Shown: positions 5,790 to 41,830, numbered from the stretch's first letter. The stretch: DNA of 64,000 nt from an uncultured Candidatus Saccharibacteria bacterium (GCA_964574655.1 CAZNOH010000001.1:137852-201851), one strand, 5' to 3'. A program made the numbers and translations. The notes: generated by a model from the sequence alone, not told the origin.

Positions 5790-6052
5790 TAAATTTTAAA
5801 AACGTTTGAGTCTGGTTATCGCCAGATGATGTTGGTGAAAGAAAGCTTGGAAGTTTCTACCTTGCCTCTGCCTTCGTTACGCTTTGGCAGGCAGGCATGG
5901 CAAGGGTCGAACCTCCGCCATGGGCGGAGTAGAAGTTCTGAGTAATTAGATTCATTCGGGTAAGCCCGTTATAGCTTGAAATAAGTTACCGCCTTCACTC
6001 TTCACTTCGTTCAGAGCTTCGGCGGTTAAAAGAGGTGGTACCGCGAATTATT
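5790..6052 (+). ncRNA. Candidate structured non-coding RNA or hairpin-element cluster. It is a GC-rich stretch with three GC-rich hairpin elements (5868-5895, 5912-5929, 5988-6026) plus other stem-loops, and ends at an intrinsic terminator.
   Basis: There is no ORF. GC content is locally higher than its surroundings. Nested helices include CCTTGCC...GGCAAGG, CTCCGCC-atg-GGCGGAG and CGGG-taag-CCCG. It is preceded by a weak promoter-like TTGACA-N15-TAAAAT (5756-5782). I recognised no RNase P, SRP or tmRNA signature. Confidence 0.25.
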
Positions 6053-6081
6053 CGCCCTCTAAATTTTTTAGGGCGTTTTTT
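6053..6081 (+). terminator. Rho-independent terminator (CGCCCT-loop-AGGGCG + T6).
   Basis: Perfect 6-bp GC stem followed by TTTTTT. Confidence 0.6.
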
Positions 6082-6159
6082 AATGGTAATAAAATGATTA
6101 TTGATGTGCAGACTTTTATAATTAAATAAAAAAACCACGTTAGTGGTTAAGTAAGTGCA

Positions 6160-6393
6160 TTATTTCTTTTGAGGAATGATCTGGAATTGAGAAATGAAAA
6201 GGTTGGAAAAATAGAAACAGAACAAACCGTTGATTAAGCAAAAAATGGTTAAAACTTCCATAATAAGAATATTCGTAGAAAGGAAAATCATGACTATTGC
6301 ATATAGCACAATTGCGAAATGTATTAGAGAAGCTGTTAAAAGAAACATCGTTATTGCGACTATCCAAGGATGTTTTTTGAGTGTGTTTCTCAT
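6160..6393 (-). CDS. Hypothetical small membrane protein (77 aa, two transmembrane helices).
   Basis: Hydrophobic ORF in an otherwise empty region; coding status uncertain. Confidence 0.25.
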   Translation of the reverse strand: MRNTLKKHPWIVAITMFLLTASLIHFAIVLYAIVMIFLSTNILIMEVLTIFCLINGLFCFYFSNLFISQFQIIPQKK

Positions 6394-6549
6394 TTCTCGT
6401 CCCCTTTTTTGTTGAAAGAACTATATAAATTTTAGCATATTAATTAATAATTGTCAATAGAATCGCGAATATGCACAAATTTATCACAAATAGCACTAAT
6501 AGTCTATATGTGAAATTTGTGCAAGATTCGTGCAAATTCGAGAAATTTT

Positions 6550-9500
6550 ATGTTTAAAAAAGTAGATCCAAAACAAGATTTTATAAAATTAGAGCATGAT
6601 GTTCTTGGTTTTTGGAATGAGAACAGAATGTTTTATAAATTGCAGAATAAAAATCATGGCAAAGAGCCTTGGTCTTTTATTGATGGTCCAATTACAGCAA
6701 ATAATCCAATGGGAGTCCATCATGCGTGGGGCAGAACATTGAAAGATGTTTTTCAGCGTTATAAGGCGATGCAAGGATTTGATCAACGATGGCAAAATGG
6801 TTTTGATTGCCAAGGTCTTTGGGTTGAGGTTGAAGTTGAAAAAGATTTGGGATTTAATTCTAAAAAAGAAATTGAAAAATTCGGTTTGGATAATTTTTCT
6901 AAAGCTTGCAAAGAAAGAATTGAAAAATATTCCGAAATTCAGACTGAACAATCAAAAAGACTGGGACAGTGGATGGATTGGAGAAATTCTTATTATACAT
7001 ATACAGATGATAATATTGAGGCAATCTGGACTTTTTTAGAAAAATGCAAAAGAAATGGCTGGCTATACAAGGGATATTCAGTAATGCCTTGGTGTACAAG
7101 ATGCGGGACTGCTTTGTCTCAACATGAATTATCAGATGATGGCTGGAAAGAAGTTGTTCATCAGGCAGTTTATATTAAATTAAAAAGAAAAAGCGAAGAA
7201 GCTGAAATTAATGAATATTTCTTGGTTTGGACAACAACTCCTTGGACATTGCCAGCAAATGTTGCTTTGGCTGTAAATCCAAAAGTAAAATATGTCAGAG
7301 TAATGAAGGACGGCGAGACCTATATCTTAGCTAAGGCTTTAGTTTCGAAAGTTTTGGGTGAAGCAGAAATTGTAGAGGAAGTTGATGGAAAAAGTCTTTT
7401 GGGTCTGCATTATGAAGGACCTTTTGATGAATTGCCTGCACAAACAGGAGTAGATCACAAAGTAATTTCATGGGAAGATGTTTCTGATGCTGAAGGTACT
7501 GGCATTGTTCATATTGCGCCTGGTTGTGGTGAAGAAGATTATCAGCTTTCTAAAACTAATGATTTGAAAATTATTGCTCCAATTGATGAATTTGGCAACT
7601 ACGTTGATGGTTTCGACTGGTTGAACAAAAAAAATGTTCACGGAATTAAGAATGAGATTTTTTCTTCTTTGAAAGAAAAAGGTAATTTTTTGAAAATTGC
7701 TGATATTAAACATCGCTATCCATTTTGCTGGAGATGCAAAGAAGAATTAGTATTTAGAGCTGTTTCAGAATGGTTTATTGATGTTTCTGAAGTCAGAGAG
7801 CCAATGAGGAAGGCTGCAGAAAAAGTTGGTTGGTTGCCTGAATCAGTTGGCAAGAGAATGCAAGATTGGCTTGATAATATGGGAGATTGGGTAATTTCTC
7901 GAAAAAGATATTGGGGTTTGCCATTGCCTTTTTATGAATGTGAATGCGGTGAAGTAACTGCTGTAGAGTCACGAAAAGAGCTTTTAGAATTATCAAATCA
8001 ACAATCAACAAATTTGATATTAGCAAGGCATGGAAGAAGCGAAGGAAATGTTTTAGGAATTACTGATGGAAAAATGCCAGGAACAAATTTAGATTGGAAA
8101 GGCGAGGAAGAAGCCGATCAATTGGCGAAACAGATGAAAGAAAGAGGAGTTGATATTGTTTATACTTCACCTTTCTCTCGTTGTAAAAAAACAGCTGAAA
8201 AAGTGGCTAAATTATGCAATGCAGAATTAGTTGAAGATGAAAGGTTGAGAGAACAGGCTTTTGGTAATTGGAATGATAAGAAAGTTTTTGAAGTTGAAAA
8301 AGAACTTACTGATTTTTATGAGGAAAATGATGATAAAAAGGCTGGTGAGACAGGTGAAAGTATGAAAGAACTTTTTGCAAGATGTCAGGATTTTTATCAT
8401 GAAATTTTGAAAAAGCATAATGGCCAGACTGTTGTTGTAGTTACTCATGATGGAATTTTGGCAAATCTAGAAAAAGTAATTGTGAATAATAAAAAAGTTA
8501 GAAATGTTATGAAAGTTACAGCTCAAAATGCTAAAGCCCATGAAATTAATATTTTAGGGAATGGCCCCAGCCATGAAGGCGGGGCAAGCAAAATTATTCC
8601 TGAATTACATCGTCCTTGGATTGATGAACTAAAAATCATTTGTCCAAAATGTAAAAAGGAAGTATCGAGAATTAAGGATGTTGGTGATTGTTGGTTGGAT
8701 GCTGGAATCGTGCCTTTTTCAACATTAAAATATTTTAGCAATAAAGAATATTGGGCAAAATGGTTTCCTGCTGAATTTGTTTGTGAAATGCGTTCTCAAG
8801 TAAGATTGTGGTTCTATTCAATGCTTTTTATGGCTGTAACGTTGGAAGATGAGACGCCATATAAACAAGTGCTAGCTTATGAAGAAGTAAGAGATGAAAA
8901 AGGCAAGCCAATGCATAAGTCTTCTGGCAATGCGATCTGGTTTGATGAAGCAGCAGAAAAAATGGGAGCTGATGTGATGAGATGGATGTACTGTGTCCAA
9001 AATCCAGCTTACAACTTAAGATTTGGCTATAGATCCGCAGAAGCAATTAGACGCAAATTAATTTTGTTATGGAACGTTTATTCTTTCTTTGTGTTATATG
9101 CGAACATTGATAATTTTAAGCCTGTTGAAAATAATAAATTAGTACTGAACAATAAACTTGATCAGTGGATTATTTCAGCTTTGAATGCATTGATTGCTGA
9201 ATGCAATAAAGAAATGGATAGATTTAATGCTCAACGCGTAATGGAAAAATGCGAGAAGTTTTTGGATGATTTAGCAAATTGGTATGTAAGAAGATCAAGA
9301 AGGAGATTCTGGAAGAGTGAAAATGATCAGGATAAGAATCAAGCCTATCAAACGTTGTATACTGTTTTGACAAATTTTGTGAAATTAATTGCACCTGTTG
9401 TGCCATTTTTGTCTGAAGAAATGTATCAGAACTTGGAGCGTCAGAGCGTCGGAGCTTCGGAGATCGGAAGCGTCCACTTGTGTGATTATCCGAAGGCTGA

Positions 9501-10092
9501 TGTAAACTTGATTGATGAAAAGTTGAATATGGAGATGGATTTGGTGAGAACAATTGCGAAATTAGGTTTAGCTGCACGTGCAAAAGCACAAATGAAAGCA
9601 CGACAGCCGTTAGCTAAGTTGAAAGTTAAAAGTTTAAAGTTAAAAGTTACGGACGATTTAATTGCTATTTTAAAAGACGAATTAAATGTGAAAGTTATTG
9701 AATTTGTGGAAAAGATTGGTTTTGAGGTTGAAGAAAAGAAAAACAAGAAAAAGTATATTTCTAAAGAAAAAGGCTTTGAAGTTGAAGGTGATGGTAATGT
9801 TGTTATTGCTTTACAGACTGAATTAACTGAAGAACTAGAATTAGAAGGTATGGCTCGTGAAGTTGTCCGACAGATTCAATCAATGCGTAAAGAAGCTGAT
9901 TATCAGATTGCAGACCGTATTAAAGTTTGTTTTGAATTAGGTGAAAAAGGTAAAAAAGTTTGCCATCAGTTTGGTGATTATATTAAAAAAGAAACTTTGG
10001 CAACTGAATTAGAAGAAGGTAAAAAAGAAGTTGATTTGGGCAAAGAGGCGAAATTAGGCAAGGAAGAAGGATGGATTGGAGTGAAGAAATAG
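6550..10092 (+). CDS. ileS: Isoleucyl-tRNA synthetase (type 2, Thermus-like) with a histidine-phosphatase/phosphoglycerate-mutase-like domain of about 170 aa inserted between the two zinc-knuckle Cys pairs (CECG ... CPKC).
   Basis: Motifs seen are WTTTPWTLPAN (CP1 editing), WVISRKRYWGLPLPF, PMHKSSGN (the KMSKS equivalent), and a HIGH region GVHHAWG that aligns to T. thermophilus GLPHVGHA. The insert has LARHGRSEGN (the RHG catalytic motif) ... VVVTHDGIL (the second catalytic His). The likely start is the ATG at 6550 (MFKKVDPKQ); the supplied ORF begins at 6517. Confidence 0.9.
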   Translation: MFKKVDPKQDFIKLEHDVLGFWNENRMFYKLQNKNHGKEPWSFIDGPITANNPMGVHHAWGRTLKDVFQRYKAMQGFDQRWQNGFDCQGLWVEVEVEKDLGFNSKKEIEKFGLDNFSKACKERIEKYSEIQTEQSKRLGQWMDWRNSYYTYTDDNIEAIWTFLEKCKRNGWLYKGYSVMPWCTRCGTALSQHELSDDGWKEVVHQAVYIKLKRKSEEAEINEYFLVWTTTPWTLPANVALAVNPKVKYVRVMKDGETYILAKALVSKVLGEAEIVEEVDGKSLLGLHYEGPFDELPAQTGVDHKVISWEDVSDAEGTGIVHIAPGCGEEDYQLSKTNDLKIIAPIDEFGNYVDGFDWLNKKNVHGIKNEIFSSLKEKGNFLKIADIKHRYPFCWRCKEELVFRAVSEWFIDVSEVREPMRKAAEKVGWLPESVGKRMQDWLDNMGDWVISRKRYWGLPLPFYECECGEVTAVESRKELLELSNQQSTNLILARHGRSEGNVLGITDGKMPGTNLDWKGEEEADQLAKQMKERGVDIVYTSPFSRCKKTAEKVAKLCNAELVEDERLREQAFGNWNDKKVFEVEKELTDFYEENDDKKAGETGESMKELFARCQDFYHEILKKHNGQTVVVVTHDGILANLEKVIVNNKKVRNVMKVTAQNAKAHEINILGNGPSHEGGASKIIPELHRPWIDELKIICPKCKKEVSRIKDVGDCWLDAGIVPFSTLKYFSNKEYWAKWFPAEFVCEMRSQVRLWFYSMLFMAVTLEDETPYKQVLAYEEVRDEKGKPMHKSSGNAIWFDEAAEKMGADVMRWMYCVQNPAYNLRFGYRSAEAIRRKLILLWNVYSFFVLYANIDNFKPVENNKLVLNNKLDQWIISALNALIAECNKEMDRFNAQRVMEKCEKFLDDLANWYVRRSRRRFWKSENDQDKNQAYQTLYTVLTNFVKLIAPVVPFLSEEMYQNLERQSVGASEIGSVHLCDYPKADVNLIDEKLNMEMDLVRTIAKLGLAARAKAQMKARQPLAKLKVKSLKLKVTDDLIAILKDELNVKVIEFVEKIGFEVEEKKNKKKYISKEKGFEVEGDGNVVIALQTELTEELELEGMAREVVRQIQSMRKEADYQIADRIKVCFELGEKGKKVCHQFGDYIKKETLATELEEGKKEVDLGKEAKLGKEEGWIGVKK

Positions 10093-10120
10093 TTGAACAA
10101 ATAGTTTGAACAGAAAAAAG

Positions 10121-10145
10121 ATAGGCGAAAATGCCTATTTTTTTT
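10121..10145 (+). terminator. ileS intrinsic terminator (ATAGGC-gaaaat-GCCTAT + T7).
   Basis: Perfect 6-bp stem followed by a T-run. Confidence 0.65.
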
Positions 10146-10172
10146 GACATTTTGTGTTTAAAAAGGTAAAAT
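10144..10172 (+). promoter_or_regulatory. Canonical sigma70-type promoter: TTGACA, 17-nt spacer, TAAAAT. A strong Shine-Dalgarno sequence AGGAGGAG follows upstream of the 10259 ATG.
   Basis: I read it directly; spacer length counted as 17 nt. Confidence 0.55.
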
Positions 10173-10258
10173 ATTATTATAAAGGTATGGATTGTTCGTT
10201 AAAATTTAATTGACTATCCAATCGATTTCTTTTCATCCCCAAGAACCAGGAGGAGAAG

Positions 10259-12889
10259 ATGCGAACAGAAAGATGGTTGATGATAGGTTTAATGTCTGTT
10301 TCTTTGATTTTTTGCACTTGCGTTATTGAACAAGCTGAAGTAGAAAATGAAGAGGTTGCAAATCGAGATATTGGCGGCAACAGTCCTAGTTTTAAGATTC
10401 CTCTCCCGAAAGGATTTGAATGGAAAGTCACGCAATCTTGGGGCGAGCATGCTGAACAATGTGATATTGATTATCCTCCAGCGTCTGGAGAAGATTATTT
10501 TGTAGAATCTTCTCATAATACTAGTTCTTATTGCGAATATGGTTGGGATTTTAGTTTACCAGGTTCAACTGATAGCGGAAAACCAGTTTTAGCTTCTGGC
10601 TTGGGCACTCTTAAATATATTGGGGATGGGACAAGTTCTGGACAATGCAATGGTTGGGGATACTGTGCGATCATTGATCATCAATACAAAAAAACTATTG
10701 ATGGCTTAGAGCATAATGTTTGTTCACGTTACGCACATATGATTATTGATTCGGGATCTCAGTTAGAAATAGGTCAGGATATTTGTCAGGGATTAAAAAT
10801 AGGAGAAATCGGAGATACTGATTCACCTGGAGCGTATCATCTTCATTTTCAGTTTGAAGATTGTGATAATCGGAAGCCATTGCGGATGGGATTTACAGAT
10901 GGAAATGGAGTTCCTCGATGTGAAGAATATTTGACGCTAACCAATGATGAAGTAGAAAGCTGTGGTGATTCTCCTGACGATGTTTTTGGTGATGCTGAAT
11001 TGCCAGAAGGTGGCTGGGTGAATGCAGGTTGTGGATCTTTGCCGGATTGTCCGTTAATTCCAAATTGTAATAGAGAAAAAGGAACTCATCTATTTTCTGA
11101 TTACATGATTGTTGATGATGTATTATTAGCTGCTGGATATCTTTATGGCGAATGTGCTTTGGATGGTAAAGCTGATGGCGGGTTACATCCAAATGATGAC
11201 ATTTCACGAGCAGAAACTTTAAAAGTTGCATTGAATTTGTTTGGTTTGGCGAGTGACAATTGTGGTGATTCAGAGAGCTTTACAGATGTTAGTCCTGATG
11301 ATTGGTTTTATGATTTGGTGAATTGTGCCCAGAAGTATGGAATCATTGAAAGCGTGGGCGGATCTTTTTATCCCAGTCATGCAGCGACTTTTGCTGAAGC
11401 GGCAAAAGTTGTTGTCGAAGCAGCGAATCAGGCTGATGTTATCGAAATAAAAAATGCGCATGAGTTAGGATTTAGCGGTTCGTCAGATTCTCATTGGTCA
11501 TTGAATTATTTTGCCACTCTTTATTATTATGGAGGAATCGATTTGGGTTATTTGCCAACTGCAATTTTGGAGCTACCAGTCAAGAGGAAGGATTTTTTTA
11601 TTATGGCAGCTTCTCTTTCGCCTTGTTTTTGCGGAAATGTTAATTGTAGTTCTGGCTGTGTTTGTGATCAGAAAGTTAGCGCTTGTGTTGATCCTGATGA
11701 TGTTTCGGATGATACAGGTGGTGGAGATGATGTAGAAGAAGAACTTGAGGAAAAAGAATTTGATTTGCAAATTGATTGCTTTGTTGATGTTGAGCATACA
11801 AGATGTGAAGATTCTGGTACAATTTTGTATGTAAAATGCGATTTGGAAAATAATGGCGATGAGGTTGTGAAGCTAAATAATCTTGTAATGTTTATGTCTA
11901 GTTCCTCTGAACAATGTCAAGTAACTGATCAAGATTTACATAGCGGTGTTGGAACTCAACATGTTGAGTCAGGAGAAATTAGAGATCTCAATGGACATTT
12001 TGAAATAACTTGTACAGATCAACCAAGAGATAGTGAATTTGAAGTCTATTTTGATTTGTATGAAAGGATTGATGGGGAAGTGACACAATACGAAGATATT
12101 TTGACAGCTGAAATATTTGTTGCTGATGAACCTTTTGAATTGTGCGAGGAAGATACGTGTACTCTATTGACGTGCCGTGTTATGGGATTTAGTTGCGGGT
12201 CTTACAGTGATAATTGCGGAGGCATAATAAGTTGTGGGAATTGTGAGCAAGACTTTGACTGCGTGGATGGCAGATGTCAGCAACGAGAAGTTTGTGAACC
12301 AGTGATCTGTCAAATATTAGGATATCAATGTGGAAATTACAACAACAATTGTGGAGGTATGATTAATTGTGGAAATTGTGGAAATGGTTTTTCTTGTCAA
12401 AATGGTGCATGCGTTGGAATACAAGAAGGTGTTTTTGATCAAGACCAATGCAATTTGTGTCCTTATACAACACCATGCGATGAAAATAATCATTGTCAGG
12501 CGGAAGGGTGGTACGATGATTGGGTATGTGAAAATGGATATGTCACAACTATTGGATCTCCAGGAGGCAGAGTAGAAATTGAAACTTCAGGCGGTCAACA
12601 AAGATTTTACCAATTTGATTTAAATCCGGCGATGCTATTTACTTTTAGTTGTGATGAATTGCCAGTGGCAATTTGGATTGAAACTGGTCCAGAATCGTTA
12701 AGTGTTGAAATTATGGATCCAAGTTTGCCATATTTTTCTTTTATTTCCCCACCATGTGAATGTGGTGTTTCAATTTATCCAAGGGGGATTGAAATGACTG
12801 CAAGAGGTATTTCTCTTTTGGTCAATAATGATGCAGAACATTGGTTGATTCGAGTGCCGATGAAAGATTATCGATCTTTTTTTGAGTAA
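10259..12889 (+). CDS. Secreted cell-surface protein. It has a signal peptide, an M23 (LytM-type) metallopeptidase domain (HxxxD ... GAYHLHFQFED), SLH-like domain(s) (FTDVSPDDWFYDLVNCAQKYGIIESVGGSFYPSHAATFAEAAKVV), an acidic linker, and C-terminal Cys-rich tandem repeats (CGSYSDNCGGIISCGNCEQDFDCVDGRCQ and CGNYNNNCGGMINCGNCGNGFSCQNGAC).
   Basis: 876-aa ORF with a hydrophobic N-terminus. The M23 HLH motif and the SLH consensus (F.DV...W...GI..G.F.P...T.AEAAK) were recognised by eye. Confidence 0.7.
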   Translation: MRTERWLMIGLMSVSLIFCTCVIEQAEVENEEVANRDIGGNSPSFKIPLPKGFEWKVTQSWGEHAEQCDIDYPPASGEDYFVESSHNTSSYCEYGWDFSLPGSTDSGKPVLASGLGTLKYIGDGTSSGQCNGWGYCAIIDHQYKKTIDGLEHNVCSRYAHMIIDSGSQLEIGQDICQGLKIGEIGDTDSPGAYHLHFQFEDCDNRKPLRMGFTDGNGVPRCEEYLTLTNDEVESCGDSPDDVFGDAELPEGGWVNAGCGSLPDCPLIPNCNREKGTHLFSDYMIVDDVLLAAGYLYGECALDGKADGGLHPNDDISRAETLKVALNLFGLASDNCGDSESFTDVSPDDWFYDLVNCAQKYGIIESVGGSFYPSHAATFAEAAKVVVEAANQADVIEIKNAHELGFSGSSDSHWSLNYFATLYYYGGIDLGYLPTAILELPVKRKDFFIMAASLSPCFCGNVNCSSGCVCDQKVSACVDPDDVSDDTGGGDDVEEELEEKEFDLQIDCFVDVEHTRCEDSGTILYVKCDLENNGDEVVKLNNLVMFMSSSSEQCQVTDQDLHSGVGTQHVESGEIRDLNGHFEITCTDQPRDSEFEVYFDLYERIDGEVTQYEDILTAEIFVADEPFELCEEDTCTLLTCRVMGFSCGSYSDNCGGIISCGNCEQDFDCVDGRCQQREVCEPVICQILGYQCGNYNNNCGGMINCGNCGNGFSCQNGACVGIQEGVFDQDQCNLCPYTTPCDENNHCQAEGWYDDWVCENGYVTTIGSPGGRVEIETSGGQQRFYQFDLNPAMLFTFSCDELPVAIWIETGPESLSVEIMDPSLPYFSFISPPCECGVSIYPRGIEMTARGISLLVNNDAEHWLIRVPMKDYRSFFE

Positions 12890-12912
12890 GCGATTTTATA
12901 TCGCTTTTTTTA
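12889..12912 (+). terminator. Intrinsic terminator (AGCGAT-tttat-ATCGCT + T7).
   Basis: Perfect 6-bp stem followed by a T-run, immediately after the stop codon. Confidence 0.6.
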
Positions 12913-13071
12913 TTTGTAAAATAATGATAAATCAATGCGAACAAATAATTTGAACAGAAAAAGATAGGCAAATATTCGTCTATCTTTTGTTTTGTATTGA
13001 CTTTTTATAGAAATAAGGTAGAGTAATTAGTCTTGGATTTTCAGGATGCCTAGAAGGAGGAGGAGAAGACA

Positions 13072-13503
13072 ATGAAAAGATCTCCATGCAGTTGGTGTTG
13101 TGGTGAAAGTTCTTTAAACATTGGAGCGGGATCATTTCGTGATTTTGACTTTGATTATTCTTATGGTCTTCCGATTTGTGGTGGCTGTGGTGGTTTAGGA
13201 ATTCAAGTTGATGATGAGGAGTTCAGGCGACTTACGAAAGAGATTATTAGATTGCGATTTGAGTATTGCCCTACTGGTGATATGCACTTGTGTCCAGACT
13301 TGCCTTTTATTGTTAGATTGCAAAAATATAAGGCTTTGCAAGCTGTTGTAGTTGAAATTTTTGGGAAATTTGCTGAATCTGGTAATGAATGTTATGCAAA
13401 AGATCTTATTGGTAGTGGCTTTGCTTGGGGGATTGAGCAATTAGAGAAGGCGTCTCAAGTCTATTGTGAGGTCTTTGAACGTGAACCGGAGAATGAATCA
13501 TGA
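13072..13503 (+). CDS. Hypothetical Cys-rich protein (143 aa; CSWCCGE, CGGCGG at the N-terminus), preceded by the strong Shine-Dalgarno sequence AAGGAGGAGGAGAAG.
   Basis: The ORF has an extended Shine-Dalgarno site. Its upstream about 140 bp is a near-duplicate of the cassette upstream of 10259. Confidence 0.5.
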   Translation: MKRSPCSWCCGESSLNIGAGSFRDFDFDYSYGLPICGGCGGLGIQVDDEEFRRLTKEIIRLRFEYCPTGDMHLCPDLPFIVRLQKYKALQAVVVEIFGKFAESGNECYAKDLIGSGFAWGIEQLEKASQVYCEVFEREPENES

Positions 13504-13521
13504 GAAGTTAAAGCAGTTCGG

Positions 13522-13884
13522 TTGGCTTGGTTGGAGTTTTGGAAAGGAAATTTTGAAGATGGTAAGAGATTGTTTTTGGCTGTTTTAAGAGATTTTCCTG
13601 AATCGAGTATTGTTAGCTGTGATTATGCTAACTATCTGTTGCTTTTCGAACGAAATCATGTCGAGGCTCTGAAATATTTTGAACAAGCAGTGAGTCAAAA
13701 ACCGAGAAAAGCTGCTCATTATTATAATTTGGCAAAATTGTTGTTCAAAAAAGAACAGTTTTCAAGAATTGATGAATTGCTTGGTGAAGCTTTAGTATGT
13801 GAAGATTCTTCTTCTTTGAATGATTGCTTTGAGGAAATTACATTGATGAGGGAAAAAGCAAGGTCGCGAGCACATTTGTCTTAG
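13522..13884 (+). CDS. Hypothetical protein (120 aa, helical/TPR-like). It is in the same frame as the 13072 ORF, separated from it only by a TGA at 13501-13503, and has no ATG start (TTG).
   Basis: 13072 and 13522 are both in frame 1. Translating across the TGA gives ...ENES*EVKAVRLAWLEFW... Confidence 0.35.
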   Translation: MAWLEFWKGNFEDGKRLFLAVLRDFPESSIVSCDYANYLLLFERNHVEALKYFEQAVSQKPRKAAHYYNLAKLLFKKEQFSRIDELLGEALVCEDSSSLNDCFEEITLMREKARSRAHLS

Positions 13885-13885
13885 T

Positions 13886-13912
13886 AACTATCCATATGGA
13901 TAGTTTTTTTAT
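13886..13912 (+). terminator. Intrinsic terminator (20-nt perfect palindrome AACTATCCATATGGATAGTT + T7).
   Basis: I read it directly. Confidence 0.65.
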
Positions 13913-13924
13913 ACCTATGCTATA

Positions 13925-18111: not shown

Positions 18112-19458
18112 ATGGAAAATTTAATGGATAAAATTGTATCGTTGGCAAAAAGAAGAGGATTTATTTTTCCGTCTTCAGAAATTTATGGCGGTTTTTCTTC
18201 TTGTTATGATTACGGTCCGATTGGAGTTGAATTAAAAAATAATATTAAGATGCAGTGGTGGAAAACTATGGTACATGATCGAGAGGATATAGTAGGTTTG
18301 GATGCCTCAATACTAATGTCACCAAAAGTTTGGTATGCATCTGGTCATTTGTCGGCTGGCTTTGCTGATCCAATGGCAGAATGCAAAAAATGCAACAAGA
18401 GATTTAGAGCTGATCATTTGAAAGAAGAAGCAATAACAAAATGTCCGGAGTGTGGTGGTGAATTGGGCGAGGTGAGAAAATTTAATCTAATGATGAAGAC
18501 TTTTGTTGGGCCATTGGAAAATGAATCAAGCATTGCTTACCTAAGAGCAGAAACTTGCCAAGGGATTTATGTTAATTTTAAAAATGTTTTGGATACCATG
18601 AGACCAAAAATTCCATTTGGTATCGCCCAGATTGGTAAGGCTTTTCGTAATGAAATTACGCCTGGAAATTTTACTTTTAGAATGCGTGAGTTTGAACAAA
18701 TGGAACAGCAGTTTTTTATTAAACCGGGAGAGAACGTAAAATATTTTGAAGAATGGAAAAAAATAAGAATGCAGTGGTATATTGATTTAGGTATAAGTCC
18801 GGAAAAGCTAAAATTTCATGAACATGCAAAAGAAGATTTAGCTCATTATGCTAAAGCTGCTTTTGATATTGAATATGATTTTCCTTTTGATAACAAAGAA
18901 TTAGAAGGCATTCATGATCGAGGGGATTGGGATCTTTCTAACCATGCAAAATCTTCTAAACAAGATCTATCTTATTTTGATACAAAAGAGAACAAAAAAT
19001 TTGTTCCAAATATAATAGAGACTTCAGCCGGTGCAGATCGAGCGGTATTGGCTTTTTTGGTTGATGCTTATTATGAAGAATCCGTTTTCGCTTCTAAAGG
19101 AGCTTCAACGGACAAAGAAAGTAAAGATAATATGAGAGTAGTGTTGAAATTTCATCCAAAAATTGCTCCAATTAAAATTGCTGTTTTGCCTTTGGCTAAA
19201 AATAAAACAGATATTACTGATTTGGCTAAGAAGATATTCAATGGTCTTAAGGCTAGATTTGTTTCAATGTATGATGAATCTGGAAGCATTGGAAAATTAT
19301 ATAGAAGGCAAGATGAAATCGGTACGCCATTTTGTGTGACAATTGATTTTGATAGCTTGGAAGATAAAAAAGTGACAATTAGAGATCGAGATACAATGGA
19401 ACAAGAAAGAGTGGAAATTGATGGATTGAAAGATTATTTTGAAAAGAAATTAGACTGA
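18112..19458 (+). CDS. glyQS: Glycyl-tRNA synthetase (class II, dimeric GlyQS type).
   Basis: 448 aa; N-terminal KRRGFIFPSSEIYGGFSSCYDYGPIGVELKNN plus the class II core and C-terminal anticodon-binding region. Confidence 0.9.
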   Translation: MENLMDKIVSLAKRRGFIFPSSEIYGGFSSCYDYGPIGVELKNNIKMQWWKTMVHDREDIVGLDASILMSPKVWYASGHLSAGFADPMAECKKCNKRFRADHLKEEAITKCPECGGELGEVRKFNLMMKTFVGPLENESSIAYLRAETCQGIYVNFKNVLDTMRPKIPFGIAQIGKAFRNEITPGNFTFRMREFEQMEQQFFIKPGENVKYFEEWKKIRMQWYIDLGISPEKLKFHEHAKEDLAHYAKAAFDIEYDFPFDNKELEGIHDRGDWDLSNHAKSSKQDLSYFDTKENKKFVPNIIETSAGADRAVLAFLVDAYYEESVFASKGASTDKESKDNMRVVLKFHPKIAPIKIAVLPLAKNKTDITDLAKKIFNGLKARFVSMYDESGSIGKLYRRQDEIGTPFCVTIDFDSLEDKKVTIRDRDTMEQERVEIDGLKDYFEKKLD

Positions 19459-19645: not shown

Positions 19646-20575
19646 ATGCCAATAGGTGAAGAACCTCCTTTTGATCCAGAAGAAGGAGAACAAAGAACAT
19701 ATACTCAGCCTGGAATTGAAAAAGAAGAAGGCAGTGAAGCAAGAAGAGCACGAGAAATTTATGAAAATTTGGTAAATCGGAGGTTGGGTAAAGCAGTTGA
19801 TATTGCAGCTGTTCCAGAGGAAGCCAGGGAAAGGCTGATGACAGCTTTAAAGGAACAAGCAAGAGAGATAGCTTTTGAACAGATAAGAGGAGAAAAAGAT
19901 GAATTGACTGGACTTTGGAGAAAAGAAGGATTAGCTAGACAATTTGAAATTGAATTGGACTACATGGAAACTTATAAATCTGACGAGGTGATGGTTTTGA
20001 TTGCCGTAGACTTAGATCGTTTTAAAAGAATAAATGATACATTGGGACATGAGGGTGCAGATAAGGTATTAAAGAGTTTTGGATTGGTTATTCGTGAGGC
20101 AATTAGAAAAACTGATTTAGGAGGAAGGCCTGGTGGCGATGAATTTGTTATAGTGCTGACAAGAGTGAAAAAGACTGATATTGATAAAACTGTTAATAAT
20201 TTATTAGAGAATATTAGAAAGATTGATGTTCCTGAACTTGGAAATTTAACAGCTAGTTTGGGAGTAGCATTGATTGAAAAAGGTGAAAAGCCATACTTTG
20301 AGGATAAAAGAGAGGAAGCTGATTTTGCAACTTATGTTGCGAAAAGAAATGGACGTGATCGTTCTGTAAGATCTGATAGTAACGAAATGCAGGATGTGGA
20401 AAAAGGAGAAGACTGGTTTTTTACGATGCAAAAGGAAAAGAATGGGCGAGAAATAGAAAGATATTCCATATTTTCTGATTTGTTAGAAAAATTTATTAAT
20501 TTGCTTGCACAGCAGGCTAAATTAGATTATGAATTATATTTAGAAGAGAAAAAAATAAAAGAAAAACAAAGTTGA
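19646..20575 (+). CDS. GGDEF-domain diguanylate cyclase with an intact GGDEF motif and RxxD I-site (IRKTDLGGRPGGDEF), plus an acidic/coiled N-terminus.
   Basis: DLDRFKRINDTLGHEGAD...RPGGDEFVIVL. The supplied ORF 19619 starts at a TTG inside the 5' UTR hairpin; the likely start is the ATG at 19646 (MPIGEEPP). A promoter-like TTAGAC-N18-TATAAT is at 19555-19587. Confidence 0.75.
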   Translation: MPIGEEPPFDPEEGEQRTYTQPGIEKEEGSEARRAREIYENLVNRRLGKAVDIAAVPEEARERLMTALKEQAREIAFEQIRGEKDELTGLWRKEGLARQFEIELDYMETYKSDEVMVLIAVDLDRFKRINDTLGHEGADKVLKSFGLVIREAIRKTDLGGRPGGDEFVIVLTRVKKTDIDKTVNNLLENIRKIDVPELGNLTASLGVALIEKGEKPYFEDKREEADFATYVAKRNGRDRSVRSDSNEMQDVEKGEDWFFTMQKEKNGREIERYSIFSDLLEKFINLLAQQAKLDYELYLEEKKIKEKQS

Positions 20576-20596
20576 TTTTTATTAAATTATTAAATC

Positions 20597-21862
20597 ATGT
20601 ATAAAAAAACTAGTTTGAAATCAGGTTTGCGATTTATTCATGTACCTGTAAAAGATATTGATACAGCAACCTTTTTAATTCTTTTTGGCGTAGGTTCAAA
20701 ATATGAAACTGGCAAAATAGCTGGGCTTTCTCATTTTTTAGAGCATATGTTTTTTAAGGGGACGACAAAAAGACCAGATTCGATGGCAATTTCTGAATAT
20801 CTAGACGAGGTTGGCGGAGAGTATAATGCTTTTACTTCTAAAGAATATACTGGATATTATGCCAAGGTTGCTTCAAAACATGTTGAACGAGGCGTTGATT
20901 TTGTGTCTGATATATTACTACATTCTAAATTTGATAGTACAGAGATAGAAAAAGAACGTGGCGTAATTATTGAAGAAATGAATATGTATCGTGATATGCC
21001 GACAAGTTATGCTCCAGAATTATTTGAGAAATTGTTGTATGGAAAAACACCAGCAGGAGAATTAGTTGTTGGACATCGAGAATCTATTTTAGGCGTCAAG
21101 CGCGATGATTTTGTTAATTATTTTAAAAATCATTATTTAATAAAGAATGCGGTTGTGTGCATGTCTGGAAATATTGATGAAGAAAAAAGTTTAGATTTGG
21201 CTGAAAAATATTTAGGCGAATTTGTTGATGGAGAAAGAAAAGAAAAAGAAAAAGTTGTAGAAAAGCAGAACAAGCCAGAGATTTTAGTTTTTAACAAAAA
21301 AACTGATCAGACCCATTTATGTTTAGGAGCTAGAGCTTTTGACATGTTTTCAGAAAAGCGTTATCCATTATTATTGCTATCAGTTATTTTAGGCGGTGGA
21401 ATGAGCTCTAGATTGTTCTCAGAAATTAGAGAAAAAAGAGGATTAGCTTATTATGTTCGTGCAAATTCTGAAGAATATACTGATTCTGGATATTTAGCTG
21501 TGCAAGCTGGTGTTAAAAATGAAAATGCAGATGATGCAATAAAGGTATGCATAAACGAATTCAAAAAAATCAGAGATATAAAAGTTTCTGAAAAAGAATT
21601 AAATAAAGCTAAAGAATTTATAAAAGGCAAGACTTTGATTGGCTTGGAATCTTCTGATGAAAAGGCAATGTTTTTTTCAATGCAAGAAGTTTTGAAAAAT
21701 AAGATAGAGACTGTCGAAGAAAAATTTAAAAAGATTGATGCAGTGATAGCGGATGATGTGCAGAAAATTGCACAAGAAATTTTTACAAATGAAAAATTGA
21801 ATTTATCGATTATTGGATCTATTGAAGATAAAGAAAAATATTTGAAATTGTTAAATTTATAA
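20597..21862 (+). CDS. M16-family zinc peptidase (pitrilysin/insulinase-like).
   Basis: Inverted zinc motif HFLEHMFFKGT (HxxEH). Confidence 0.8.
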   Translation: MYKKTSLKSGLRFIHVPVKDIDTATFLILFGVGSKYETGKIAGLSHFLEHMFFKGTTKRPDSMAISEYLDEVGGEYNAFTSKEYTGYYAKVASKHVERGVDFVSDILLHSKFDSTEIEKERGVIIEEMNMYRDMPTSYAPELFEKLLYGKTPAGELVVGHRESILGVKRDDFVNYFKNHYLIKNAVVCMSGNIDEEKSLDLAEKYLGEFVDGERKEKEKVVEKQNKPEILVFNKKTDQTHLCLGARAFDMFSEKRYPLLLLSVILGGGMSSRLFSEIREKRGLAYYVRANSEEYTDSGYLAVQAGVKNENADDAIKVCINEFKKIRDIKVSEKELNKAKEFIKGKTLIGLESSDEKAMFFSMQEVLKNKIETVEEKFKKIDAVIADDVQKIAQEIFTNEKLNLSIIGSIEDKEKYLKLLNL

Positions 21863-21878
21863 TTTTTAATATAAATCT

Positions 21879-23048
21879 ATGCAAAAATTGTTAGATCGCA
21901 AAGTAGTTTTTGATGTTTCTTATGCTACTTTTTTAAGAGCAGTTTTAATTGTGTTGTTGTTAATGTTTTTGTTCGCAGTTAAAGATATCTTGTTAATAAT
22001 TTTTGTGGCTTTGATTATCGCTTCAGGCTTGGATCCTGTAATCGATTGGCTTCAGAAAAAAAGAATTCCTCGTGGCATTAGTTCTCTTTTCCTTTTTTTG
22101 ATTTTGTTTGGTTTGATTGCGTTAATTGTCTATTTATTGGTACCGCCATTGGTTGAACAAACACAGCAATTAGTTGAAGTTTTGCCAGGTTATTTTCAAA
22201 CTGTTTTTGAAAAAGTTTCTGAATTTACAGGCTATTCTCAAGAACAGAGTTTAGATAAGGCAAAGGAGATATTGACTTCATTAGAAGACAAAGTAGGAGG
22301 TGCAGCATCAAGTGTTTATGGCTGGATTTCTGGTTTGTTTGGCGGAATTTTATCAGTAGTTATGATTTTTGTCTTATCCTTTTATTTTATTGTTGAAGAA
22401 GGAAGTTTTAAAAAATTTATTAGATCAATTGTTCCTTTTCGTCATCGTCCTTATGTTGAAGATTTAGTTGGTAGAATGCAACTTCAAGTTGGTAAATGGC
22501 TAAGAGGGCAGTTGTTATTAGGTGTGATTGTTGGAGTTGTGATCTATATTGGTTTGTCATTGATGGGAGTGAAATATGCTTTAGTGTTGGCGCTTGTGGC
22601 AGGCCTTTTAGAAGTTATACCATATATCGGACCAGTGATTTCCGCTATTCCGGCAATTTTAATTGCATCTGCGCAGTCTCCTTTATTGGCTTTGTTTGTG
22701 ATAATTTTGTACTTCTTAGTTCAACAGTTAGAAAACCATATATTGGTTCCGAAAATAATGCAAAAGGTTGTTGGACTTAATCCATTAGTAATTATCTTGG
22801 TTATATTAGTTGCTGTGAAACTAGCAGGAATTTTAGGAGCAATAGTCGCTGTTCCAGCTGCTACTTTGCTTTCTGTTTTCTTACGTGATTTATTTGATGA
22901 AAGAGACAAAAAAGATGAAGAAAAATTGAAAACACAAATCTGCAAGCCAGGAGAAGTGGAATTGGCTGGAGTAAAATCAGAGCATGTTGAGGATTTACAA
23001 AAGCGTGTATGTAAAATACCGCCAGAGAAAAAAGAGATAGAAACTTAA
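21879..23048 (+). CDS. AI-2E family transporter (UPF0118/PerM-like permease).
   Basis: Polytopic membrane protein with the conserved ...LLEVIPYIGPVISAIPAILIA... block. Confidence 0.75.
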   Translation: MQKLLDRKVVFDVSYATFLRAVLIVLLLMFLFAVKDILLIIFVALIIASGLDPVIDWLQKKRIPRGISSLFLFLILFGLIALIVYLLVPPLVEQTQQLVEVLPGYFQTVFEKVSEFTGYSQEQSLDKAKEILTSLEDKVGGAASSVYGWISGLFGGILSVVMIFVLSFYFIVEEGSFKKFIRSIVPFRHRPYVEDLVGRMQLQVGKWLRGQLLLGVIVGVVIYIGLSLMGVKYALVLALVAGLLEVIPYIGPVISAIPAILIASAQSPLLALFVIILYFLVQQLENHILVPKIMQKVVGLNPLVIILVILVAVKLAGILGAIVAVPAATLLSVFLRDLFDERDKKDEEKLKTQICKPGEVELAGVKSEHVEDLQKRVCKIPPEKKEIET

Positions 23049-23798: not shown

Positions 23799-25313
23799 AT
23801 GACAAAGAAATTTTATATAACAACTCCGATCTATTACGTAAATGATAAGCCGCATCTTGGTCATGCTTATACAACGATTGCAGCTGACATCTTGGCTAGA
23901 TATCATAGACTAAAAGGTGATGATGTTTTCTTTTTGACTGGAACCGATGAGCATGGTGCAAAAGTAGCAAAGTCTGCTGAAAAAGTAGGTAAAACGCCAA
24001 AACAATTTTGTGATGAAATTTCTGCTTTATATACTTCTCTTTGGGATGCGTTGAATATTTCCAATAATGATTTTATTAGGACAACTGATGAACGTCATAA
24101 AAATGGTGCGATTAAATTCATTGAAAAATTAAAAGAAGCCGATGCTATTTATGAGGGATCATATGATGGATTGTATTGCACTGGTTGCGAAAAATTTTTG
24201 ACAGAAAAGGAACTAATAGATGGCAAATGTCCTGATCATAAAATTGCTCCAGAAATAATTTCCGAAAAAAATTATTTTTTTAAGTTGGATAAATATGCTA
24301 AGAAAGTTCAAGAATTAATTGAAAAAGATAAAATTAAAATTGAGCCAGAAAATATCAAGACAGAGGTTTTGGGATTATTTAAACAAGAATTAGAAAATTT
24401 TTCTGTGTCTCGAGAAAAAGTATTATGGGGAATAAAAGTGCCGTGGGATGAAAGCCAAGTAATCTATGTGTGGGTAGATGCATTATCAAATTATATTACA
24501 GCTTTGGGATATGGAAATACTGATGACTCAAAATTTAAAAAATATTGGCCAGCTGATCTGCATCTAATGGGAAAAGATATTATAAAATTTCATGCAATTT
24601 ATTGGCCGGCAATGCTGTTAGCAGCAAAGCTTGCAGTTCCTAAGCATATTTTTGCAAATGGTTATTTTACAGTTAATAATCAGAAAATGAGTAAAACAAT
24701 TGGCAATGTGATTGATCCGAATGATTTAGTTAAAAAATATGGATCTGATGCTGCAAGGTACTTAATTATTTCTCAATTTCCTTTTGGACAAGATGGTGAT
24801 GTAAAAGCAGAAAAATTTGATGAACAATTTAATGCTAATTTAGCAAATGGTTTAGGAAATTTGGTGAGCAGGGTGACAGCAATGTATTTAAAGTTGAATT
24901 TGAAAAAATGTAAAGGTAAGATATTAGAAAGTAAAGAAGCAGTCAGATTGGTCAATAATGCTTGGAAGAATTATGAAAAGTTTATGGAAGAAAACAAAGT
25001 TGACCAAAGTTTGAAAACAACTTTTAGTTTAGTAAAATTTGCTAATGAATATATATCAGTTGAAAAACCATGGGAATTGTTTGGAAAAGATGATGAAAAA
25101 TGCGCTTTGGTATTGTGCAACTTAATTGAAATAATCAGGCATATTGCTTGGATGATTTATCCTTTTTTGCCAGAGACAGCAGAAAATATTTTGACGCAAT
25201 TTTCTCTTTGGGAAGAAGAAAGCAAGTTAGAATATATTAAATTAAAAAAATGGAAGCGTTTTGATTTAGATTTGCAGGTTAAAAAGGGTCAGGCTTTGTT
25301 TCCACGCATTTAA
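23799..25313 (+). CDS. metG: Methionyl-tRNA synthetase (short form).
   Basis: PIYYVNDKPHLGHAYT (canonical HLGH) and KMSKTIGN. Confidence 0.9.
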   Translation: MTKKFYITTPIYYVNDKPHLGHAYTTIAADILARYHRLKGDDVFFLTGTDEHGAKVAKSAEKVGKTPKQFCDEISALYTSLWDALNISNNDFIRTTDERHKNGAIKFIEKLKEADAIYEGSYDGLYCTGCEKFLTEKELIDGKCPDHKIAPEIISEKNYFFKLDKYAKKVQELIEKDKIKIEPENIKTEVLGLFKQELENFSVSREKVLWGIKVPWDESQVIYVWVDALSNYITALGYGNTDDSKFKKYWPADLHLMGKDIIKFHAIYWPAMLLAAKLAVPKHIFANGYFTVNNQKMSKTIGNVIDPNDLVKKYGSDAARYLIISQFPFGQDGDVKAEKFDEQFNANLANGLGNLVSRVTAMYLKLNLKKCKGKILESKEAVRLVNNAWKNYEKFMEENKVDQSLKTTFSLVKFANEYISVEKPWELFGKDDEKCALVLCNLIEIIRHIAWMIYPFLPETAENILTQFSLWEEESKLEYIKLKKWKRFDLDLQVKKGQALFPRI

Positions 25314-41747: not shown

Positions 41748-41830
41748 TGCCGCGGGAGGGAGTTGAACCCTCATGAGCCGAAGCTCACACGATTTTGAGT
41801 CGTGATTGTATGCCATTCCAACACCGCGGC
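41748..41830 (-). tRNA. tRNA-Leu (anticodon CAA), class II with a long variable arm (TGAGC-TTCG-GCTCA); no encoded CCA.
   Basis: I folded it by hand. The acceptor is GCCGCGG/CCGCGGC + A, the D-arm is TTG...CAA, the anticodon stem is CACGA/TCGTG with loop CTCAAAA, and the T-arm is GAGGG-TTCAACT-CCCTC. Confidence 0.8.

Follow-up and report, generated by a model that had tools for sequence, protein, structure and literature searches.

The ileS gene in a 64,000-nucleotide stretch of DNA from an uncultured Candidatus Saccharibacteria bacterium (GCA_964574655.1, CAZNOH010000001.1:137852-201851; hereafter the window) encodes an isoleucyl-tRNA synthetase (IleRS) with a histidine phosphatase domain nested inside its catalytic body, between the two cysteine pairs of a zinc knuckle. 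We are nearly certain of this architecture and of the intactness of the catalytic machinery. The explanation that we favour, and consider probable rather than firm, is that the protein would be a functional type-2 IleRS (IleRS2) with a nested, flexibly tethered and active phosphomonoesterase that is functionally coupled to the synthetase. Few enzymes are as conserved as the aminoacyl-tRNA synthetases, and isoleucyl-tRNA synthetase is essential; to our knowledge, bacterial synthetases seldom acquire new catalytic domains within their bodies. In the present case, between one and four phosphatases, active by all appearances, are repeatedly lodged in an essential synthetase, with strict pairing of host and guest and with a content that shifts between close relatives.

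The features of the gene are listed in Table 1. The insert matched Pfam PF00300 (His_Phos_1) with an E-value of 3.7e-37 (128.3 bits, threshold 21.7) over profile positions 1-185 of 194, and the tRNA-synt_1 match of the ileS product (residues 18-486) is interrupted by this domain and resumes after residue ~683. A histidine phosphatase between the cysteine pairs had been proposed in a first-pass annotation of this DNA, and the proposal was borne out: the motifs LARHGRSEGN (containing R493-H494-G) and VVVTHDGIL (containing H633) were found as quoted, the Arg, His, Arg, Glu and His residues are intact, and the pairs CECG (C464 and C466) and CPKC (C698 and C701), said to lie about 230 residues apart, are separated by 231 residues. 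Two of its figures have to be revised, namely the usual spacing of 50-60 residues and the extra length of about 170 residues. The nearest insert-free relatives (P0004) have 39 residues between the pairs, so the net insertion is about 192 residues. The catalytic set of the family is complete in the insert (R493, H494, N500, R544, E568 and H633), and R493-H494 aligned to R8-H9 of the PspA structure 4ij5, the structure 4ij6 being the H9A mutant of that PspA.

The insert modelled alone by AlphaFold2 (AF2) with an alignment of 97 sequences gave a confident His_Phos_1 fold with a low-confidence tail (predicted local distance difference test, pLDDT, 87.6; predicted template modelling score, pTM, 0.86), in line with the earlier suggestion that the domain might prove a separable module. 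The linker C-terminal to the phosphatase (~675-682) is rich in Gly and Ser, is predicted to be disordered and has low confidence in both AF2 models. The top Foldseek matches of the insert model were PspA 4ij5 and 4ij6 (template modelling score, TM, 0.80); PspA, mycobacterial GpgP, a riboflavin-pathway histidine phosphatase, PhoE and CobC were ranked before true mutases, with TM values of 0.74-0.80 for PspA, GpgP, PhoE and CobC. Similarly, the closest sequences in PDB were the phosphoserine phosphatase PspA of Hydrogenobacter thermophilus (4IJ5, E = 8.6e-20) and PhoE (1EBB/1H2E, 7e-13). All models of cofactor-dependent phosphoglycerate mutase (dPGM) scored below their cutoffs with the window protein (dPGM_arch 72.1 against 225, PRK01295 38.3 against 316, PRK14120 31.6 against 366), so the domain is classed as phosphatase-type and not mutase-type. 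The named phosphatase equivalogs also scored below cutoff (PspA 88.5 against 350, CobC 91.6 against 162.9, GpmB 54.2 against 261, SixA 24.1 against 74.5). Because every curated sub-family model stayed well under its cutoff, the guest is, as judged from sequence and model, a generic small branch-1 phosphatase of the PhoE/PspA/CobC-like kind, with no identifiable orthologue among the named enzymes. In this way, the description 'PGAM-like' given to the insert at first was right as to the histidine phosphatase family and wrong as to the mutase type.

The start of the gene at ATG 6550 agrees with the N-termini of aligned homologues (MFKKVDPKQ); an in-frame TTG at 6517, upstream of it, gives the 1191-residue form found in the NCBI deposit (P0403, on a 654-kb contig). 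The product passed the NCBIfam ileS equivalog TIGR00392 (759.7 bits, cutoff 621.4) and has the type-2 C-terminal domain DUF5915 in place of the type-1 zinc-binding domain. By these domain matches, it is a type-2 IleRS. The window protein scored below cutoff with ileS_w_GNAT (NF040702, 301.6 against 1999) and with the MupA and MupB models (625 and 586 against 1900). All eight of its zinc-knuckle cysteines are conserved in the alignments, as are TTTPWT and D330 of the editing site. The pairs C182/C185 and C393/C396, which flank the editing region in connective peptide 1 (CP1), probably form the first zinc site. For the second knuckle, an alignment of 67 related IleRS2 sequences shows C464 without variation and C466 with at least 90% conservation; the AF2 model placed the Cys pairs on two beta-hairpins (461-471, with strands 461-463 and 469-471, and 695-707), with the insert in place of a short connection. 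This knuckle probably corresponds to the CP3 or 'ZN-2' element of class Ia synthetases.

The HIGH region, which had been described as shifted, reads GVHH. This motif was near-invariant across the 67 related IleRS2, insert-bearing and insert-free alike, and by this alignment it is a family-wide variant that has nothing to do with the phosphatase insertion. The G/AXHH swap of HXGH is widespread in IleRS2, is catalytically competent and causes mupirocin hyper-resistance (Brkic et al. 2023, PMC10485003). In the full-length AlphaFold model, built with an alignment of 67 sequences, pLDDT is above 90 on each flank of the insert, and by superposition the model reached a TMt of 0.85 against P. megaterium IleRS2 (8c8v) and of 0.92 against T. 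thermophilus IleRS. Since the defining motifs and the predicted fold are kept on either side of the insert, the host synthetase is most likely a working enzyme.

The in-frame insert recurs with identical junctions in contigs from at least five independent samples. Beyond the window, it is carried at the same place by P0001 in three Logan contigs from three runs (SRR27710297/-318/-321), by P0002 in an ENA assembly (ERZ24794679, 70% identical), by P0003 from a JGI source, and by L007, the GTDB representative JAQVVF010000002.1 ('Patescibacteria group bacterium STF1_73', 90% identical). The comparison with sister genomes from separate samples, proposed in the first-pass annotation as a check, therefore came out in favour of its claim, and the frameshift or chimera that it named as a possible refutation was not found. 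The ratio of nonsynonymous to synonymous substitution (dN/dS, Nei–Gojobori method) was computed separately for insert and host, with the window compared to the loci L001 and L004. For the insert, dN/dS is 0.115 (L001) and 0.288 (L004, where dS is near saturation), while for the host the values are 0.052 and 0.087; amino acid identity is 68% and 57% in the insert and 94% and 77% in the host. The insert changes faster than the synthetase yet is clearly constrained by purifying selection. There is no compositional sign of recent transfer of the insert (GC content 0.340, and 0.349 in the host). With the insert under purifying selection and in frame across independent metagenomes, we can in practice exclude a chimera or pseudogene.

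To place the insert among its relatives, we searched 1.84 billion cluster representatives exhaustively with HMMER, taking the insert as query, and obtained 14,216 hits (E ≤ 1e-3); this search superseded a word-indexed one with the insert alone, which gave three weak standalone matches and missed the orthologues. Among the best 150 of the 14,216 hits, the proteins of at least 600 residues were all type-2 IleRS, whole or contig-truncated, carrying His_Phos_1 (15/15); tRNA-synt_1 was present in all 15, and Anticodon_1 and DUF5915 also in most. Mapping of the copies with a custom hidden Markov model revealed that IleRS2 carriers hold one to four His_Phos_1 copies, located at the zinc knuckle (site A), at the linker between the catalytic body and the anticodon-binding domain (site B), or at both. 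One copy at site A is found in the window clade and in P0160, P0167, P0141, P0148, P0263 and P0214 (the last also with a GNAT domain), and two tandem copies at site A in P0129, P0124, P0125, P0127, P0130 and P0136, where a third begins at the truncated end. At least four tandem copies are present in the contig-truncated P0128. P0134, P0146/P0278 and P0131 have a copy at each site, and P0039 from Candidatus Peregrinibacteria has a copy at site B alone. P0195 is a fragment with tRNA-synt_1 and His_Phos_1. Each complete embedded copy retains the pattern R-H-[G/A]-N-R-[T/S]-E-G-H. Between the window (site A) and P0039 (site B), the domains are only 29% identical, no nearer to each other than either is to free-standing phosphatases.

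The named carriers are metagenome-assembled genomes (MAGs) of Peregrinibacteria/Peribacteria and of the 'Patescibacteria group'. No His_Phos_1 was found in or near ileS at any of 78 IleRS2 loci from other phyla, including DPANN archaea, Chloroflexota, Gemmatimonadota and others, with flanks of up to 6 kb each. Neighbour-joining distance trees suggest that the guests fall into several clades and the hosts into three groups or more, IleRS without the insert being scattered among the carriers, and this implies multiple gains and/or losses of the module; as these trees carry no support values, we claim no number of independent insertions.

Several side observations were made on these relatives. 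P0214 (895 residues, contig-truncated) has its GNAT domain in the CP1/editing region (residues 265-374), in addition to His_Phos_1 at the zinc-knuckle site; it was rejected as a member of ileS_w_GNAT (NF040702) at 222 bits. A large family of proteins of about 400-430 residues (P0126, P0132, P0133, P0135 and some 30 more) consists of two His_Phos_1 domains in tandem; these proteins rank with the nearest relatives of the insert and group in clades of their own by distance. The genes around P0174 and P0132, which are standalone or tandem relatives, gave no useful information. For the synthetase itself, most of the IleRS relatives of top identity beyond L007 in a GTDB scan (L008-L051, 56-63%) are from DPANN archaea (Woesearchaeota and Nanoarchaeota), which suggests that this IleRS2 lineage may have moved between episymbiotic archaea and bacteria of the Candidate Phyla Radiation (CPR) by inter-domain transfer.

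A second synthetase with an embedded hydrolase, also pointed out in the first-pass annotation, was found again in the LeuRS of the window, whose alpha/beta-hydrolase (GHSLG at residue 326) sits immediately ahead of the editing domain. Compared with an 805-residue orthologue (P0283), this LeuRS has three extras: besides the hydrolase, there is a 23-residue Lys-rich insert in the first zinc module and a segment of about 130 residues that lies between C637xxC and C811xxC, in the loop that corresponds by homology to the insertion site of IleRS. The segment gave no Pfam hit, and an ASCH-like identity considered for it is unsupported for that reason. Among the 120 nearest LeuRS, most of those from Patescibacteria bear an alpha/beta-hydrolase and/or NUDIX domain, and none of the 120 bears His_Phos_1. 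Orthologues that are 76-79% identical have entirely different module content: the CxxC...CxxC loop of P0281 holds an alpha/beta-hydrolase, the editing domain of P0284 holds a NUDIX domain, and P0283, from the genome of L007, has no modules. The two alpha/beta-hydrolase modules in this comparison share only 39% identity. Furthermore, the 410-kb contig L087, which encodes the phosphatase-bearing IleRS P0167, also encodes a 953-residue LeuRS (20130-22991) whose NUDIX domain separates the editing domain from the remaining half of the catalytic fold. The lineage-specific trend proposed earlier is thus supported and is broader than was claimed, comprising an IleRS family with one to four copies and the LeuRS modules: as far as the sequences tell, it extends across Patescibacteria, each host having guests of its own kind that turn over rapidly.

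The recurrent pairing of IleRS with His_Phos_1 suggests a so far undescribed link between the phosphatase and the charging of tRNA-Ile. In the mechanism that we propose, the guest would be an active phosphomonoesterase using the phospho-histidine chemistry of its family. R493, R544, N500 and H633 would hold the substrate phosphate, H494 would attack it to form a phospho-histidine intermediate, and E568 would protonate the leaving group and then activate water to free the phosphate. The selected trait would be tethering to IleRS and co-dosage with it rather than a fixed geometry, because the domain works from two distant sites and its linkers are disordered. At the weakest step of the scheme, the module would dephosphorylate something that IleRS itself handles. 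Candidates would be a blocked acceptor end of tRNA-Ile (3'-phosphorylated or pyrophosphorylated), a phosphorylated serine in the KMSKS loop of the synthetase, or a phosphorylated adenylate-like inhibitor; taken singly, none of these substrates rises above improbable in our estimate. The module would act as a fast-evolving accessory that guards isoleucylation.

Some observations weigh against a phosphatase coupled to isoleucylation. The best structural matches of the insert by Foldseek are metabolic phosphatases (PspA, GpgP, the riboflavin-pathway enzyme, PhoE and CobC). A comparison of IleRS-embedded with standalone phosphatases gave no distinguishing residues beyond the family core, and no basic charge bias of the RNA-binding kind was detected in the embedded domains (median isoelectric point 6.4). 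IleRS as such can function without the module, since close relatives lack the insert (P0004-P0009). Additionally, no substrate is readable from the sequence, the full-length AF2 model positions the insert poorly (pLDDT 30-75) because only four sequences cover it, and the IleRS-specific pairing could derive in part from history, by duplication and relocation in one gene family, and not from function. The first four of these points would be expected of an ordinary small-molecule phosphatase, acting on phosphoserine, a sugar phosphate or a cofactor, that has no link to isoleucylation and hitch-hikes in a streamlined genome by riding in a constitutively expressed essential gene; the unrelated hydrolases hosted by Patescibacteria LeuRS likewise suggest that permissive loops take cargo. 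However, random cargo should mix among hosts and should fuse at a terminus more easily than within an essential catalytic body, whereas in the sets searched His_Phos_1 is paired with IleRS alone, and LeuRS with alpha/beta-hydrolase or NUDIX. Moreover, the phosphatase recurs at two sites with domains of 29% identity, in up to four tandem active-looking copies, and also as a neighbour of ileS. Because it leaves the strict IleRS-phosphatase and LeuRS-hydrolase/NUDIX pairings unexplained, we rate hitch-hiking as a serious alternative that is nonetheless rather unlikely.

It is less likely by far that the domain is a non-catalytic sensor or structural module, whose pocket would bind a phosphorylated ligand without turnover (the tRNA 5'-phosphate, (p)ppGpp or a phosphometabolite that signals the nutrient state) and so modulate IleRS. 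The insert does adjoin the second half of the Rossmann fold, and a full RelA/SpoT protein is encoded in the window, so alarmone signalling exists. Pseudo-enzymes of the histidine phosphatase fold usually lose the His or the Glu, but here no complete copy, even among very divergent lineages, has lost the nucleophilic His, the acid/base Glu or either Arg, which is the pattern of an enzyme and not of a binding-only relic. We give even less credence to a true glycolytic cofactor-dependent phosphoglycerate mutase fused into IleRS: the Pfam family is the same and dPGM structures are among the weaker matches, but the dPGM models of NCBIfam lie far under their cutoffs, the domain of ~185 residues has a short cap and no C-terminal tail, and the best structural matches are phosphatases of ~200 residues, dPGMs aligning with lower target coverage. 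The probability that the gene is an assembly chimera, a frameshifted pseudogene or an annotation artefact is negligible. Its source is a metagenome-assembled genome and the names given to its relatives at NCBI go no further than 'class I tRNA ligase family protein' or 'hypothetical protein', but the frame is unbroken, the same junctions were obtained from independent samples and assemblers (Logan, ENA, JGI, GenBank JAQVVF01), the GC content of the insert matches that of the host, and the insert is under purifying selection.

Returning to the coupled phosphatase, the quick turnover of modules among close relatives resembles, by analogy, conflict or accessory systems more than core metabolism. 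A wider hypothesis, which we hold tentatively and think unlikely, is that nested modules in the class Ia synthetases of Patescibacteria would form an unrecognised, fast-evolving 'in-cis maintenance/immunity' layer for aminoacylation. IleRS would contribute the histidine phosphatase to this layer, and LeuRS an esterase-type alpha/beta-hydrolase and a NUDIX domain. The phosphatase would then reverse phosphate lesions installed by toxins or competitors on the 3' end of tRNA-Ile or on the KMSKS-loop serine or, alternatively, would destroy phosphorylated antibiotics that mimic the adenylate, and the copy number and position of modules would vary as they do in other conflict systems.

Both parts of the protein, as well as synthetases with extra domains, are already known, and the proteins already have entries in public databases, where their names are uninformative. 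In PDB, sequence (E = 4.9e-184) and fold (TMt 0.85) both point first to the GXHH IleRS2 structures (8C8U-8C9D, PMC10485003), which share with the window protein the Rossmann fold, CP1, zinc knuckles, Anticodon_1, the type-2 C-terminal domain and GVHH; characterised IleRS2 have a short loop where the window protein holds a phosphatase of about 192 residues. For the guest, PspA/iPSP1 of H. thermophilus (4IJ5), PhoE of Geobacillus stearothermophilus (1H2E/1EBB), CobC and GpgP (Rv2419c) have the same fold, the same catalytic residues and a similar size (~190-210 residues), and presumably share the phospho-histidine mechanism. However, those small phosphatases are free-standing and have known small-molecule substrates, whereas the insert is nested in a synthetase and is only ~25-35% identical to them. 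PRK07238, 'bifunctional RNase H/acid phosphatase', is a precedent for His_Phos_1 joined to a nucleic-acid enzyme, and the window protein scored 82 against its cutoff of 326. Precedents for a synthetase with an extra enzyme domain are NF040702 ileS_w_GNAT and the MetRS of M. penetrans. The ancillary domains of the latter are N-terminal (PMC13215547), unlike the guest in the window protein, which is nested inside the catalytic body and present in up to four copies in relatives. The Patescibacteria LeuRS with alpha/beta-hydrolase or NUDIX domains are similar in lineage, in having a class Ia host and in the variability of their modules, and the zinc-knuckle loop is also used in P0281, but they differ from the window IleRS in host and guest families. 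The hydrolase-bearing LeuRS are known as database entries only, such as 'alpha/beta fold hydrolase [Candidatus Liptonbacteria bacterium]'. In full-text searches of the literature, no description of a synthetase with a nested histidine phosphatase, alpha/beta-hydrolase or NUDIX domain was found, nor one of the IleRS family with one to four phosphatase copies.

If the phosphatase acts on tRNA-Ile, the synthetase or an inhibitor, it would represent a novel mode of protection or regulation of tRNA charging and would provide an entry point into the biochemistry of uncultured CPR bacteria. Should it be cargo and nothing more, it would still mark the zinc-knuckle loop of class Ia synthetases as a natural and highly permissive insertion site, useful in protein engineering. 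In practical terms, the nested module leads annotation pipelines to demote these genes to the generic names given above.

Table 1. Features of the phosphatase-bearing ileS gene and associated features, with positions counted from the first letter of the window.
Feature	Position	Strand	Remark
Remnant of standalone His_Phos_1 gene, last 8 codons and stop	6095..6126	+	tblastn, 8/8 identity at 6103-6126
ileS coding sequence	6550..10092	+	Single unbroken open reading frame; 1180 residues from ATG 6550
G55-V-H57-H58, non-canonical class I signature (GXHH swap of HXGH)	6712..6723	+	Near-invariant in 67 related IleRS2
CP1 editing region with TTTPWT (residues 228-233) and D330	7093..7737	+	Flanked by Cys C182/C185 and C393/C396
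First Cys pair of second zinc knuckle, C464 and C466	7939..7947	+	In beta-hairpin
Inserted segment, residues ~485-682	~8002-8595	+	Alignment with insert-free relatives
His_Phos_1 domain proper, residues 489-672	8014-8565	+	Pfam PF00300
R493-H494 of RHG motif	8026..8031	+	H494, predicted phospho-accepting nucleophile
R544, second phosphate-binding Arg	8179..8181	+	SPxxRxxxTA motif
E568	8251..8253	+	Predicted general acid/base
H633, second catalytic His	8446..8448	+	VTHDG
Second Cys pair of second zinc knuckle, C698 and C701	8641..8652	+	Invariant in 67 sequences
M788-H-K-S791, KMSKS-loop equivalent	8911..8922	+	M788, H789 and S791 invariant in family alignment
Site B linker, residues ~858-870, at boundary of catalytic body and anticodon-binding domain	9121..9159	+	No insert in window protein
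Anticodon_1 (residues 871-1022) and type-2 C-terminal domain DUF5915 (residues 1073-1180)	9160..10089	+	Pfam
LeuRS, 1150 residues	27664..31116	+	Ser_hydrolase/alpha-beta-hydrolase at residues 264-435

Besides the nested copy, a phosphatase gene stands next to ileS in a related genome. In L007, a standalone His_Phos_1 gene of 191 residues (5992-6567) lies directly upstream of ileS. The L007 segment 5900-6530 is absent from the window by blastn, and the corresponding interval in the window is about 520 bp shorter; by this comparison, the standalone phosphatase gene has been deleted in the window, where only its last eight codons are kept.

On the other side of the gene, about 3.8 kb between ileS and recO (10119-13917) is missing from the syntenic loci L001 and L007. 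Positions 10259-12889 encode an 876-residue Cys-rich protein with Peptidase_M23 and SLH domains, and the segment has the appearance of a lineage-specific insertion that brought in a gene for a cell-surface or lytic protein. Four synthetase genes are found within about 25 kb, encoding IleRS (6550), a GlyRS-type class II enzyme (18112-19458), MetRS (23799-25313) and LeuRS (27664). An Rfam scan of the window at gathering thresholds gave no hits, and the sole tRNA gene of the window is tRNA-Leu(CAA) at 41748-41830 on the minus strand. The GC skew is about +0.3 over ~4-44 kb and ~58-64 kb, and it falls to between ~0 and 0.2 at 44-58 kb, where the genes are mostly on the minus strand.

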